Below are positions 5,746 to 64,000 of a DNA stretch of 64,000 nt, piece after piece. The DNA is from Escherichia coli (GTDB lineage: Bacteria > Pseudomonadota > Gammaproteobacteria > Enterobacterales > Enterobacteriaceae), in the NCBI RefSeq assembly GCF_003334315.1, contig NZ_QOWR01000011.1, one strand, 5' to 3'. The notes under the pieces are model-generated. The model saw only the letters and a list, made by a program, of their open reading frames with translations, had not been told where the DNA came from and searched no databases. The translations under genes were made by a program, and so were the position numbers. Each line of letters starts with the position of its first letter. The first letter of the stretch is position 1.

Positions 5746-6311
5746 TAGATCTTAACTCGCTGAATAAACTCACCAAATGCGGTCAATTGCCCGGTCAGGT
5801 GGTCCAGCGTACCCTGGTCAATCACTTCTCCGGTTTGCGGATCAACTTTGTTCTGAATCACGCCGCCCATAAATTCCGGCTTGTTCATCACCATTGCATC
5901 GAGGAAAACCAGAATCTGGCGCAGGTGATACTGACAGCGCGCGCCGCCAATCACGCCCATTGAGCTGGTCTGAATCAATACCGGTTTACCGGCCAGCGGT
6001 TGATCCGGCAGGCGGGAAAGCCAGTCGATGGCATTTTTCAGCCCACCCGGTACCGAGTAGTTATATTCCGGCGTGACGATCACCACACCGTCAGCCTGAC
6101 GGATCTGTTCCGCCAGAGCTTCAACCGTTGCTGGAAAACCGTCTTCCTGCTGTACGTCAGCGTCATACAAGGGAATGTCGGCAATGGAAGGTAACGCATT
6201 GACTTCCATGCTCGCCGGAGCAATTTTCGGCAGGGTACGTGCAACCATGCCATTAAATGAGCCTTTGCGCAGGCTCCCCAGTAACGTAACCACCTGCAAT
6301 TTTTCAGACAT
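5745..6311 (-). CDS. chrR: NAD(P)H-dependent FMN reductase / chromate-quinone reductase
   Basis: 188-aa ORF; flavodoxin-like NADPH-dependent FMN reductase signature (LLGSLRKGSFN). Confidence 0.85.
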   Translation of the reverse strand: MSEKLQVVTLLGSLRKGSFNGMVARTLPKIAPASMEVNALPSIADIPLYDADVQQEDGFPATVEALAEQIRQADGVVIVTPEYNYSVPGGLKNAIDWLSRLPDQPLAGKPVLIQTSSMGVIGGARCQYHLRQILVFLDAMVMNKPEFMGGVIQNKVDPQTGEVIDQGTLDHLTGQLTAFGEFIQRVKI

Positions 6312-6332
6312 GATGACTCCTGTGGTTGTCTA

Positions 6333-7094
6333 TCAATTTGGCGAAAAAGCCTTCACGGTAGAGAGTTGGGCAAAACGCATCATCCGGCTGGTAGGATTGT
6401 TGGCGCGGCTGTGAATATCCGGCAGGCTTTTCCAGCCGTGTTTGCCATCTAACTCCCAGACACTGAGCTTTTCAATCGTGGGCGTGACCGCCACGGACCA
6501 CACCAGCACGTCTTCCGCGTCGCATAACGCTTCTACATGATTTACATGAGCACATTTCAGGCGTCCGGCAATGGGCAGCAGCTGCAGATCGCGCGGATCG
6601 TCATTCAAAACATCACCGGTTAGTTTTAGCACGCTTCGGCGCAGCGTGATGAGCTGCGCCCGCGCTTCGTTAGGATCGTTTTGTTTACTGATCCATAGCG
6701 ATTCATTGCTGGAAAAGGTGTGGTTATCGGGCGCGTGTGGGCTATGAAACCCGCGCGTCGCACGCTGTAGTTCCATATCGAGACCACATTCACCTTCGGT
6801 TGTTAACGCCACGCCAACCATATTCCCGGCATAGGAAATAGAAAACGAAGGCAAATTTTTATCACTGAAAACCGGTTTACCTTTCGGCAGGGTGACGATT
6901 TCCGGCAATTCGCCAATGCCATACAGCATGAACATCAGTTCTGCGAGTAAACCTCTAGACGCCAGAAAACGGCTTTGACGATGAGGGGGAATGTTTCGGG
7001 CTTCTTGATGACACTGGGAGGGGAGACGAACAGAAATCAGATGTCCTTCCGTTAAAATCCCTCGGGCAAAGTGAGTCGCCATTTTTCGCTCCAT
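6333..7094 (-). CDS. yieE: putative 4'-phosphopantetheinyl transferase family protein
   Basis: 253-aa ORF in track; synteny between chrR and yidZ; start may lie a few codons downstream. Confidence 0.7.
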   Translation of the reverse strand: MERKMATHFARGILTEGHLISVRLPSQCHQEARNIPPHRQSRFLASRGLLAELMFMLYGIGELPEIVTLPKGKPVFSDKNLPSFSISYAGNMVGVALTTEGECGLDMELQRATRGFHSPHAPDNHTFSSNESLWISKQNDPNEARAQLITLRRSVLKLTGDVLNDDPRDLQLLPIAGRLKCAHVNHVEALCDAEDVLVWSVAVTPTIEKLSVWELDGKHGWKSLPDIHSRANNPTSRMMRFAQLSTVKAFSPN

Positions 7095-7238
7095 GCTTAA
7101 TGGTCCATTATGAATACAAGAGTAATCATTTACTGGAATGATGGACAGACTAAAGCGGCTAAAAGTTCGATTCAGACAAGCTTATTACAACTTTTTTACA
7201 TTTTATTGTGAAATTGGGTCGCGTTTCATACGATTCGG

Positions 7239-8198
7239 TTATGCCATCGACGCGTAAAGGTTTTTAATGGTTTCCCGTAACCAGACGATCTTCGGATTAT
7301 GGCTGTTCCGTTTATGCCACAGCAGGGTAAAAGGAACTTCCAGCTTTTTTTGCTGGCTTTCGTCAAACGGGAGAGGAAGAGCAACCAACGGCAGTTGATG
7401 GAGTTGATTGTAGTACTGACAGTAGCGCGGCGCGGTCGCCAGTAGCAGATTGTCGGGTTGCGCTGCCATAAACAGTGACTGCTCAAATTCCGGCAGGCTC
7501 ATAGCAATCGTGCGTTCGCGCCCCAGCTCCTGTAACACATTGTCCAGCGCCCAGGTGTCGCTCTGTTCCCAGCAAATGCTGATATGCGGATAACGTAAAA
7601 AGGTGTCCAGATTCCACGTTTCATGCAGTGCCGGATGATCTTTGCGTAACCAGACGCAGGGTACATCACTAAACAGCACTTCATAATCAATGGCTAACGG
7701 TAGCGAGCTTAACAGCTCCCGCGAGCGAGGATGGCTTTCGCGACCGGAAAAACCAATATCCACTTCACCACGAGTAATGGCATCTAAGGAATCGTAATCC
7801 CAGTTACGTAGTTTGATGGTCGCCTGCGGGTAACGTTGGTAGATCCGTTTCGACAGCGCATTAAGCATGATCATCATCAGCGGCGATTCCGCCGCCAACT
7901 CAAACTTCAGGCCGCGCGGTGTCTGGTGGTGCGGTTTATCCAGCAGCAGATTGCTCATTTGCATCTATTCCGCCAGATTTTGCTCCATGCTGACCATCAG
8001 CGGTGTGGGCGACAGACCCAGCGGTGAGTTCACAAAGAGCGGGTCGTCAAACCACGCTCTTAACTTTGCCAGCGACTTACTCACCGCCGAAGGTGTCACG
8101 TTTATCCGCTTCGCCGCTTTGGTTACGCTGCGCTCCTGCATCAGCAGTTGCAGACAAAGCAGCAGATTGAGATCAAGCGTGGTGATGGATTTCTTCAT
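7239..8198 (-). pseudogene. yidZ: LysR-family transcriptional regulator interrupted by an in-frame amber codon (TAG at 7965..7967)
   Basis: Track shows an 80-aa HTH ORF (7965..8207) and a 241-aa substrate-domain ORF (7239..7964) in the same frame separated only by TAG; read-through gives a 319-aa LysR regulator. Confidence 0.75.
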
Positions 8199-9348
8199 GA
8201 GCGGCAACGGGGCGTCCAGGCGCGACGAACATAATCAGCAACAGGCTCACTATGCTACAGGCAATCAGAATCCCGATCAGCATATTCCATGCGCCGATAC
8301 CAACCACCGCTGCCAGCCAAATCCACAGTGACGAACCGCAAACCTGCGCAATACCTAAGGTCGAGCTGGCTACGCCCGCGCGTAATGAAAACGGCCCTAA
8401 CGCCTGACTCATCGCCACACCAAAACCTACCGAGAAACCGGCGCAAATCAGCGTGATACCAAACAGAGAAACCGCATGGGAAGGTGAAACGGCAAGAGTG
8501 ATCCCCGCCGCCAGGAATAACACCTGCGAGGTGATCATCAACGTACGTGGCTTAAAAATTCCCAGCGCAAATGGCGTGGAGAATGAAACGGTCATGCTGA
8601 CGCCAGCGGTCAGCGCCATAATGGTGGCGTATTCACCGCGCTCAAACCCCATGATTTCCATCAGCAATACCGGTGACGTGTTGACGAAAGTGAGGATCAC
8701 CGAAACGCTGAGGGTGGTGATAACAACACGGCTGAGGAAAAAACGGTTAAGCAGCGACTCGCTATTTTCTCGTGGTTTATCCGAAGCTGCGGGGGCCGCT
8801 GGGCGCGTTTCTTTTAAAATAAACAAAGACAACATCAGTACCGCGATGCCCATCATTGCCATCGCCCAGAACAGACTCTGCCACGGGAATTTAAGCATAA
8901 TCAGATGTCCGAGCACTGGCGCTAACACCGGAATGATGCAGGTAATACCGTTGAGTAATGACAGCACTTTAGCCCGACGTCGATCATCCAGCGTGTCGCG
9001 CAAAATAGCGAACGCCACTACGTAACAACAGCCTGCGCCCAACCCCTGTAGAAATCGGCCTGCAAGAAATAACGTGCTGGTTTCAGCCAGTGAACAGAAC
9101 ACCGAGGCAATAATAAATAGCGCCGCGCCGGGTATGGCGACCGGCTTTCTCCCTGAACGATCGGCCACTTTACCGGCAAATAACATCGCAGCTGCCATCC
9201 CCGCCAGATATACGGAGAACGCAATATGCAACTGCGCTTCGCTGGCATTGAGATCGGCGGCGATGCGCGGTAAACCAACGAGGTACATATCAATCCCGGC
9301 GGGATAAAGTAAAACCAGGGCAAAACTACAAATCAAAAAGCGGGACAT
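8173..9348 (-). CDS. mdtL: MFS multidrug efflux transporter
   Basis: 391-aa 12-TM ORF; MFS signature; its 3' end overlaps the yidZ start by about 26 bp. Confidence 0.85.
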
Positions 9349-9444
9349 GGGCTAAAGCGTCCTGATAGTAAGGTGACGCAAAGCATACGTGGTGAAGGAG
9401 GATCAGGCGAGTTGCCATTTGGACATAAGTGATTTCCTGAGAGG

Positions 9445-9473
9445 CAAGAAGCCAGCGAATGGCTGGCTTCTTG
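9445..9473 (-). terminator. perfect 12-bp stem hairpin downstream of tnaB (possible operon terminator; no clear U-tract)
   Basis: CAAGAAGCCAGC-GAATG-GCTGGCTTCTTG located just 3' of the tnaB stop. Confidence 0.4.
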
Positions 9474-9479
9474 AAGGAT

Positions 9480-10727
9480 TTAGCCAAATTTAGGTAACAC
9501 GTTAAAGACGTTGCCGAACCAGCACAAAATCACGGTTATACCAAAGAGAATGACAATCGCCGGAATAAGATTGCCGCCCCAGACCGTGAACATCTGATTG
9601 GGAAACTTCTTGCGAGCTTTGATTGCAAGCACTGCGGGAATAATGACCGCCCAGATGGTGGCGCACAGCCCGGCACCGCCGATCCCGTAAATAAAGCCGT
9701 TCGGGAAGATCAGATACAACAACGCAGGTGGCAGGAAGGTTAACAGCACGGTTTTGAAACGCCCGCCGTGGGAGTTATCAATCTTAAACAGGTCCGCCAG
9801 ATAATCGAACAACCCCAGCGTGACACCAAAGAACGAACTGGCAACAGCTAAGTTAGAGAACACCAGCAGGCAAAACTCGATAATGCCGTGCTGTTTGGTG
9901 CCGAGGAACGATTTCACCAGCGAATCAACGTTGCCGCCTGAGGAGATAATCGCCTTAAAGCTTTCTCGCGGAATATTCCCCATGGTGCAATAGAGCCAGA
10001 AGAGATAAATCACCAGCGCCAGCAGCGAACCAAATACTACGCTTTTGATTAACTTATCTTTGCGTTTTCCATAGCAAATAATCAGGCTGGGAATATTGCC
10101 GTGGAAACCAAATGACGCCAGACACACCGGCAAAGCCATAAAGATATACGGGAAGTAAGACGTTCCCGCAGTGGAGCTGGTGGCGTCGCGCAGAATGGAG
10201 TAATCGACCTGGAAGAAAAAAGAACCAAACACGATCACAAAGGAGATAATCTTCAGCCCGAGGAACAATGAGGTAATACGACTGGCGGCTAACGAACTTA
10301 ACCACAATACGCTGGCAACGAAAATGGCTGTGCAGATCCCGACAATACGTGGATTAGCGTGATAACCCAAATTCATTGATATCGTTTCACTAATGATCGC
10401 ACCATTAGCAGAGATATAGGCATAAGTGAGGATATAGAGAACGAAGGCAACGGTAATACCGCTGATAATGTTCCAGGTGTTACCGATTAAATCTTTGGTG
10501 ATGGTGTTAAAACTGGAGCCGACGGGATAATTTAAATTTGCTTCTAATAACAATAACCCGGAATGAAGCATTGAAAACCAGGCAATGATAAGGATAAAGG
10601 CACCCCAGAAAAACCAGGCACCGGCAAGATCAACAGGTAAAGCAAACATACCTCCACCAATTACTGTACCTGCTATAACCATAACACCCCAAAATGCAGA
10701 GTGCTTTTTTTCAGCTTGATCAGTCAT
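9480..10727 (-). CDS. tnaB: low-affinity tryptophan permease
   Basis: 415-aa membrane ORF of the aromatic amino acid permease family immediately downstream of tnaA. Confidence 0.9.
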   Translation of the reverse strand: MTDQAEKKHSAFWGVMVIAGTVIGGGMFALPVDLAGAWFFWGAFILIIAWFSMLHSGLLLLEANLNYPVGSSFNTITKDLIGNTWNIISGITVAFVLYILTYAYISANGAIISETISMNLGYHANPRIVGICTAIFVASVLWLSSLAASRITSLFLGLKIISFVIVFGSFFFQVDYSILRDATSSTAGTSYFPYIFMALPVCLASFGFHGNIPSLIICYGKRKDKLIKSVVFGSLLALVIYLFWLYCTMGNIPRESFKAIISSGGNVDSLVKSFLGTKQHGIIEFCLLVFSNLAVASSFFGVTLGLFDYLADLFKIDNSHGGRFKTVLLTFLPPALLYLIFPNGFIYGIGGAGLCATIWAVIIPAVLAIKARKKFPNQMFTVWGGNLIPAIVILFGITVILCWFGNVFNVLPKFG

Positions 10728-23497: not shown

Positions 23498-23896
23498 ATG
23501 GGGCTTTTTGATGAAGTTGTCGGTGCCTTTCTGAAAGGCGATGCGGGGAAATATCAGGCTATTTTAAGTTGAGTTGAGGAGCAGGGCGGCATTCAGGTGC
23601 TGCTGGAAAAACTGCAAAGTGGCGGCTTAGGGGCCATTCTCTCAACCTGGCTGAGTAATCAACAGGGCAATCAATCGGTTAGTGGCGAGCAACTGGAATC
23701 GGCGCTCGGCACAAATGCGGTGTCCGATCTCGGGCAAAAACTTGGCGTGGATACCAGTACAGCTTCCAGTTTACTGGCAGAACAATTGCCGAAGATTATT
23801 GATGCGCTCTCACCGCAAGGTGAAGTGTCACCACAAGCCAATAACGATCTGCTTTCCGCAGGCATGGAACTGCTGAAAGGGAAACTCTTCCGCTAA
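23498..23896 (+). pseudogene. yidB: DUF937-family protein gene interrupted by an in-frame opal codon (TGA at 23570..23572)
   Basis: ATG at 23498 with upstream GGTGA gives MGLFDEVVGAFLKGDAGKYQAILS then TGA; the same frame continues VEEQGGIQVLLEKLQ... to 23896; read-through is exactly 132 aa. Confidence 0.7.
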
Positions 23897-37359: not shown

Positions 37360-40680
<3,321 letters not shown>

Positions 40681-62715: not shown

Positions 62716-62825
62716 TTTTCCCTCTGCATACTGTTTTGTCGTTTATGTATGCAGGCATGATAGCAAAAATGGCGAGGATGGCTCTGTTTGCGCCACGCCG
62801 ATTTTTCTTAGCCCAGACTGGTGAG

Positions 62826-63796
62826 CTAAATATCTTTAATAAACAGCAGGCAAATCATCGCAATACCCAACATCCCTATCGCCAGCCAGAACAACGCATG
62901 GTAGCTCCAGATTTCAACCATAATTCCGTCAACAGAGCCGGCGATAATCCAGCCGACGCGTGAAGTATTTGCATATAACGTTGTCGCAGAGCCTATTTTT
63001 TCAGGCATCAAGTCCTGAAAATAAAGCATGCCGATACCACAGAGAATACCAAGGAAGATGGCATTAAGAATTTGCAATTCCAGCTCAACCGCCGGAGTCG
63101 TCGCCATGAGTACGCTGGCGTAAAAACACATTCCACTCACGATAGCAATGAGCATTAATAGTCGCTTGCCAATACGTTTCATGTAATAGCCTGCGATTAA
63201 CATCATCGGAATTTCCAGACCGGCAGCGATACCAATCATTTCTCCAGCCAGTTTATCGGTTAGATGCAGTTCATCAATAATAAATAGCGGCATATTTATC
63301 ATGTAGAGATTATTCGCCGCCCACATCATTGAACAGACCACAAAAAGTAGCCGCGTATCCCGCTTCCTGTGGGTGGAGGGTAAAATTTCTACGGGTTGGG
63401 TAACGACAGGAATATTTCTTTGTATTGATGGCAAAAACAACCAGACTATCAGTCCGCAAACAACAAATGCGATGGCAGCGGTGAGATACATCACTTTAAA
63501 ACTAAATCCCATTGCCAGTTCATAAGCGAGCGGTGGCCCGATAACCCAGGCAAGCGAGATCTGAGCACGTAAAAATGTACTGAACATGACCGTCTCACGG
63601 CCTGTTCTGTCGGCGTGTTCACGGGCGAGGGCGAACATTTGCGGGTTTGCGGTGGAAGCAAAACTACTCAGAAGTACGCCCGTTGAGAGGAGAATGAAGT
63701 AGTTGCGATTCCACGCAAAAAGCGTGCAGGCCAGCACTCCAAATAAGCAACATAGCAGAATCAGTAATTTACGGTCGCCTTGTTTATCGGAGTGCC
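62826..63796 (-). pseudogene. setC: sugar efflux transporter SetC gene, truncated at its 5' end by an IS1 insertion
   Basis: Minus-strand frame stays open with SET-family sequence (...SDKQGDRKLLILLCCLFGVLACTLFAWNRNYF...) right up to 63796, where the IS1 terminal repeat begins; the SetC N-terminus is missing from the window. Confidence 0.8.
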
Positions 63797-64000
63797 GGTG
63801 ATGCTGCCAACTTACTGATTTAGTGTATGATGGTGTTTTTGAGGTGCTCCAGTGGCTTCTGTTTCTATCAGCTGTCCCTCCTGTTCAGCTACTGACGGGG
63901 TGGTGCGTAACGGCAAAAGCACCGCCGGACATCAGCGCTATCTCTGCTCTCACTGCCGTAAAACATGGCAACTGCAGTTCACTTACACCGCTTCTCAACC
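63797..64000 (+). mobile_element. IS1 insertion sequence, first 204 bp (terminal inverted repeat plus start of insA); continues beyond window
   Basis: Starts GGTGATGCTGCCAACTTACTGATTTAGTGTATGATGGTG..., the IS1 terminal inverted repeat, and runs into the insA frame. Confidence 0.9.
63852..64000 (+). CDS. insA: IS1 InsA (transposition repressor / N-terminal transposase part), partial
   Basis: GTG start 55 bp into IS1; translation (M)[48 protein letters not shown] carries the InsA zinc-finger Cys motifs. Confidence 0.85.

Follow-up and report, generated by a model that had tools for sequence, protein, structure and literature searches.

In LysR-family regulators, the DNA-binding domains dimerise through a linker helix, and tetramer assembly and effector response depend on the effector domain. 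The nearest solved structures to YidZ are full-length LysR regulators, e.g. 2esn and 1utb/1uth. In Escherichia coli K-12, YidZ has 118 binding sites, and deletion of the gene alters 74 genes, the acid-stress genes gadA, gadBC and hdeAB being down and some sugar-transport genes up (PMC8464067). The K-12 deletion is viable (PMC8464067), and yidZ is therefore dispensable. In the literature on yidZ no report of the W78 TAG allele was found.

The DNA analysed here is a 64-kb stretch (64,000 nucleotides) of an E. coli genome, referred to as the window. Its yidZ lies at the same locus and in the same synteny (tnaB, mdtL, yidZ, yieE, yieF) as K-12 yidZ (b3711), and the length of the product on read-through is likewise 319 aa. 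The two proteins differ only by R118Q, E193Q and a stop at residue 78. Codon 78 is TGG in K-12, whereas it is TAG in the window, which thus has no full-length coding sequence for the regulator. The features of the locus are the following.

7239..8198, minus strand: yidZ, a LysR-type regulator gene with 319 codons and a terminal stop, broken at codon 78 (959/960 nt identity to the intact yidZ of CP53; Pfam)
7965..7967, minus strand: amber TAG at codon 78 (ancestor TGG, Trp); the substitution at 7966 reads C to T on the plus strand (G to A in the gene)
7965..8198, minus strand: N-terminal open reading frame, 77 aa plus TAG, covering the winged-HTH domain and roughly the N-terminal third of the interdomain linker (PF00126 on the 77-aa product in public contigs)
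7239..7964, minus strand: C-terminal open reading frame, 241 aa from Met79, with the effector-binding domain and without the DNA-binding domain (PF03466 on the 239-aa product)
7969..7974, minus strand: Shine-Dalgarno-like GGCGGA, a putative reinitiation signal, 4 nt 5' of ATG79 and 10 nt 5' of ATG81
8173..9348, minus strand: mdtL, the upstream gene, intact, overlapping the yidZ start by 26 nt (open reading frame list and annotation)

The plus strand reads 'cta' at 7965-7967, i.e. TAG on the minus strand, and minus-strand translation of 7239-8198 gives 77 aa (MKKSITT...NLAE), a stop and, in the same frame, 241 aa (MQMSNLL...YASMA) followed by the terminal TAA. In the list of open reading frames the gene appears as two pieces, 7965..8207 and 7239..7964, both on the minus strand. 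The ATG of Met79 directly adjoins the TAG; gene callers choose Met81 at 7958, which results in a product of 239 aa. A reading made earlier from the letters and open reading frames only (the sequence-only reading) had described HTH and substrate-binding frames in one register separated only by the TAG at 7965-7967, and the translation and the list confirm both its coordinates and its description. It had further predicted a 319-aa LysR protein on read-through, which indeed agrees with YidZ from the nearest relatives at every residue but 78. An intact protein of only about 241 aa, named there as evidence against a disrupted gene, does not apply, as the intact protein has 319 aa.

In a megablast search with window positions 7100-8400, 5,424 of the 5,426 complete E. 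coli genomes were matched, with a top identity of 99.9 %, and the features annotated in the matched region were yidZ and mdtL. Orthology to yidZ is supported by sequence and by synteny, the gene lying 3' of and overlapping mdtL and 5' of yieE. A chance pair of open reading frames can be excluded because the 960-nt gene is identical to an annotated intact yidZ at 959 of 960 positions. In the intact protein, Pfam places an N-terminal DNA-binding domain, HTH_1 (PF00126), at residues 10-66 (E = 1.7e-13) and LysR_substrate (PF03466) at residues 101-313 (E = 1.8e-16), and the stop at codon 78 therefore falls in the interdomain linker. No single open reading frame of the window contains both the HTH and the effector domain. 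Judged from its sequence, the locus is a YidZ orthologue by descent and no longer encodes an intact LysR-type regulator. Since mdtL is intact and shares 26 nt with the start of yidZ, translational coupling of yidZ to mdtL is probable. A scan of 6200-9700 for promoters and terminators gave no more hits than shuffled sequence, and no terminator-like hairpin was found between yidZ and yieE.

The ancestral codon is evident from the closest relatives. Over 1301 nt the window and CP53 show a single mismatch, at position 7966, where A on the gene strand of the window stands against G in CP53, changing codon 78 from TGG to TAG; the intact yidZ product of CP53 is WP_001460148.1 with 319 aa. Codon 78 is TGG also in S171-1, BL12, Z1324SEC0014, RCAD0514 and K-12. 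The window thus carries an in-frame stop where the intact orthologues, including the closest relatives, have a sense codon, as is characteristic of a nonsense pseudogene. To assess rarity, a 55-nt query centred on 7966 was used, in which every 28-nt megablast seed was forced to cover the mutated base. With the local haplotype of the window, TAG at codon 78 was found in 0/5,426 complete E. coli genomes, and on the other common local haplotype (GAG...AAC) it was likewise absent from all 5,426. The same 55-nt query with TGG matched 2,197 genomes, and the test with the TAG query therefore works. The sequence-only reading had proposed TGG as the ancestral codon, and this is what the nearest relatives, K-12 MG1655 and the 2,197 genomes sharing the local 55-mer have. 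The alignment to reference yidZ that it called for has now been made, and reference orthologues with a stop at this codon, which would have spoken against it, did not occur (0/5,426 genomes).

The window is near-clonal with S171-1, BL12 and RCAD0514, with about 10 SNPs in 64 kb. Within the first 25 kb, S171-1 and the window differ at four positions, 88, 911, 1339 and 7966; six more SNPs lie in the other 39 kb, where the only indels are IS1 insertions in S171-1. Position 7966 is hence the sole difference from S171-1 between 1.4 and 25 kb, in support of the recent pseudogene that had been suggested from the letters. Among 59 annotated CDS checked in the window, three had internal stops or frameshifts, and only yidZ is disrupted privately, the disruptions of yidB and of a glvG-like gene being present in the relatives too. 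The remaining SNPs against the compared relatives are ordinary: two non-synonymous (bglH, yieL) and three synonymous. These alignments identify the yidZ stop as a young, strain-specific mutation on a near-clonal background. The yidB gene of the same window offers a comparison, since there too a Trp codon became a stop (TGA, codon 25) via a single G-to-A change, with the rest of the gene intact. The yidB stop, in contrast, is common to the relatives, where the gene is annotated as a pseudogene, and it is therefore older than the yidZ stop, which is private to the clone.

The best explanation is that a genuine and recent G-to-A transition in the source clone replaced the tryptophan codon 78 (TGG) of yidZ by an amber codon. 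Translation would then stop after 77 residues, within the linker between the winged-HTH and the effector-binding domains, and no full-length LysR-type regulator would be made, so that yidZ would be a young loss-of-function allele and a nascent pseudogene. We consider it highly probable that the recent G-to-A change at Trp78 truncates yidZ in this way. The mutation is present in the window, it is unique among the complete genomes and it is young. Loss of YidZ function is most likely, given the domain architecture, because the stop separates the HTH domain (10-66) from the effector domain (101-313). Ending about 11 residues into the interdomain stretch 67-100, the 77-aa fragment is without most of the linker and without any of the effector domain.

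Stops at W78 are not confined to this clone. In public contigs they occur on at least four to five backgrounds, three with TAG (A, B and C) and two others with TGA. Haplotype A is the window's own. On haplotype B, a K-12-like yidZ (contigs L009 and L010), the TAG lies between B-specific SNPs 2 and 16 nt away, and an independent mutation would therefore be the parsimonious reading. These contigs could not be explained as K-12 laboratory derivatives: their yidZ haplotype is that of K-12, yet they show 82-170 differences from K-12 in 20 kb. Background C carries TAG in L021 and L024, the latter occurring in 17 samples, and TGA at codon 78 is found on L019 and L029, which represent the two further backgrounds. 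Other yidZ lesions nearby in public contigs are E72 TAG, Q80 TAA and a 4-bp deletion, and W183 TAG and W216 TAG occur on several backgrounds. These public yidZ nulls, W78 TGA included, resemble the present allele in being independent truncations, seen in isolates and metagenomes, and differ from it in position or background, the window allele being TAG on the A-type haplotype.

The 77-aa prefix was present on 16 contigs, compared to 0-7 for the other Trp stops of yidZ, and prefixes ending at neighbouring codons that are not one step from a stop were present on 0-1 contigs. As a baseline, Trp-to-stop prefixes were tested in mdtL, yieE, yieF, tnaB, yieH and cbrC, and all ten of the ten tested were present, on 17 to at least 1000 contigs each. 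A hotspot or selection at W78 was therefore rejected, the neighbours' 17 to at least 1000 contigs standing against 16 for yidZ W78; the frequency of the yidZ W78 stop is at or below the background for dispensable genes. A deamination hotspot at a Dcm 5-methylcytosine was also rejected, as the mutated C lies in CATCCATTC (plus strand), which is not CCWGG. In very large collections, a recurrent nonsense allele on several backgrounds should thus be taken as the background expectation and not as a sign of selection. The yidZ W78 stop is an ordinary strain-specific gene inactivation.

A change of one base that is present in none of the 5,426 complete genomes could in principle be a sequencing or assembly error in a strain that truly has TGG. 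Such an error is extremely improbable, as the same base is found in Logan contigs from public read sets. One of them, from SRR1122540, is identical to the window over 18,198/18,198 positions, among them those of the TAG and of three private SNPs (88, 911 and 1339), and it occurs in three samples, which might be re-sequencings of one isolate; a common origin of this kind would exclude a base-calling error, not a mutation acquired in culture. The identical allele is thus present on a contig from public reads, and the 18.2-kb identity including the private SNPs makes a random base-calling or assembly error unlikely. The exact 77-aa and 239/241-aa products also occur in public assemblies, and neither indels nor further private gene disruptions, which could have pointed to a poor assembly, are present in the window. 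The TAG base call is probably not an error.

If the stop is real, the gene might still retain a function, either as two pieces or through decoding of the amber codon. Termination at UAG followed by reinitiation at Met79 or Met81 would yield an HTH peptide of 77 aa and, separately, a protein of about 240 aa comprising the effector domain. Either or both might have some activity, such as DNA binding that no longer depends on the effector. No gap separates TAG from ATG, both pieces are predicted by gene callers in public contigs, and the SD-like GGCGGA upstream has an anti-SD duplex energy of -4.8 kcal/mol, better than the -3.0 of the native yidZ start, which overlaps the end of mdtL. About 19 % of the positions in the region reach -4 or better. 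It is thus possible that reinitiation at ATG79 or ATG81 could give a separate effector-domain protein of 241 or 239 aa. Residual function of such a split gene is nevertheless very unlikely: the 77-aa fragment stops about 11 residues into the stretch 67-100, which corresponds to the dimerisation linker helix, the effector domain alone would be unable to bind DNA, and the allele shows no sign of being favoured, being absent from the 5,426 complete genomes and no commoner than the Trp-to-stop alleles of neighbouring genes. Less probable still is a regulator in two pieces, the HTH peptide and the effector domain existing separately, with the recurrence of W78 stops on several backgrounds reflecting selection for the split or, in the gut, for regulator loss. 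The least probable of the explanations considered is that a suppressor tRNA or natural read-through restores full-length YidZ and keeps the gene functional. Amber suppression was the alternative named in the sequence-only reading, and no result obtained here favours it. UAG followed by A is a comparatively leaky context in the suppression literature, but background read-through is in general about 1 % or less, and to our knowledge amber suppressors are rare in natural isolates. A suppressor tRNA encoded in the window can be dismissed, since the 64 kb contain no tRNA gene. Codon 78 is TGG in the orthologues and a stop in 0/5,426 complete genomes; the stop is conserved in no orthologue and is therefore not a programmed recoding site.

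With a truncated and most likely inactive yidZ, a mild regulatory phenotype is the most that would be expected, and the strain may differ slightly in its acid-stress responses (gadA, gadBC, hdeAB). Beyond annotation the significance of the allele is slight, and its main practical use lies in correct annotation: in this clone the locus is best annotated as one yidZ pseudogene containing an internal stop, in place of two separate genes named 'LysR family regulator, partial' (77 aa) and 'YidZ' (239 aa).

Some further observations were made on the public contigs. Six contigs from different samples (L012-L017) break off within codon 78, at its first or second base (window 7966-7967), and two of them are 100 % identical to K-12. 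Similar contig ends were found at yidZ W183 (L037, L041, L043) and W216 (L034, L035). The ends at codon 78 are likely due to branching of the assembly graph caused by TGG/TAG or TGG/TGA mixtures within samples. An 84-aa prefix of TnaB (protein P0124), as would result from a stop at Trp85, was matched by at least 1000 public contigs, including chromosome-sized ones, and may point to a tnaB truncation that is common in E. coli. The tnaB of the window (9480-10727, minus strand) is intact.

Of the four sites at which S171-1 and the window differ within the first 25 kb, three (88, 911 and 1339) cluster in bglH and yieL (bglH Gly vs Asp, yieL Asp178 vs Tyr and one synonymous), and all three variants are carried by the SRR1122540 contig. 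Their clustering suggests a small recombination patch and not point mutations. Two insertions present in relatives are missing from the window, namely the IS1 between tnaC and mnmE in S171-1 (L002 12653-13420) and the IS903B inside tnaA in Z1324SEC0014 (L004 12183-13237).

The yidB gene (window 23498-23896, plus strand) has its in-frame TGA of codon 25 at 23570-23572 (AILS*VEEQ) and is annotated with an 'internal stop' in S171-1, BL12, Z1324SEC0014 and RCAD0514, being an older, clade-wide pseudogene. The glvG-like CDS (38976-39790, plus strand), located 3' of a PTS IIB gene, is frameshifted in the window and annotated as 'frameshifted' in the relatives. The end of the window (about 63797-64000) lies inside the left end of an IS1 element, which, according to the annotation of the relatives, truncates a sugar efflux transporter gene (62825-63796); the layout is the same in S171-1 and RCAD0514.
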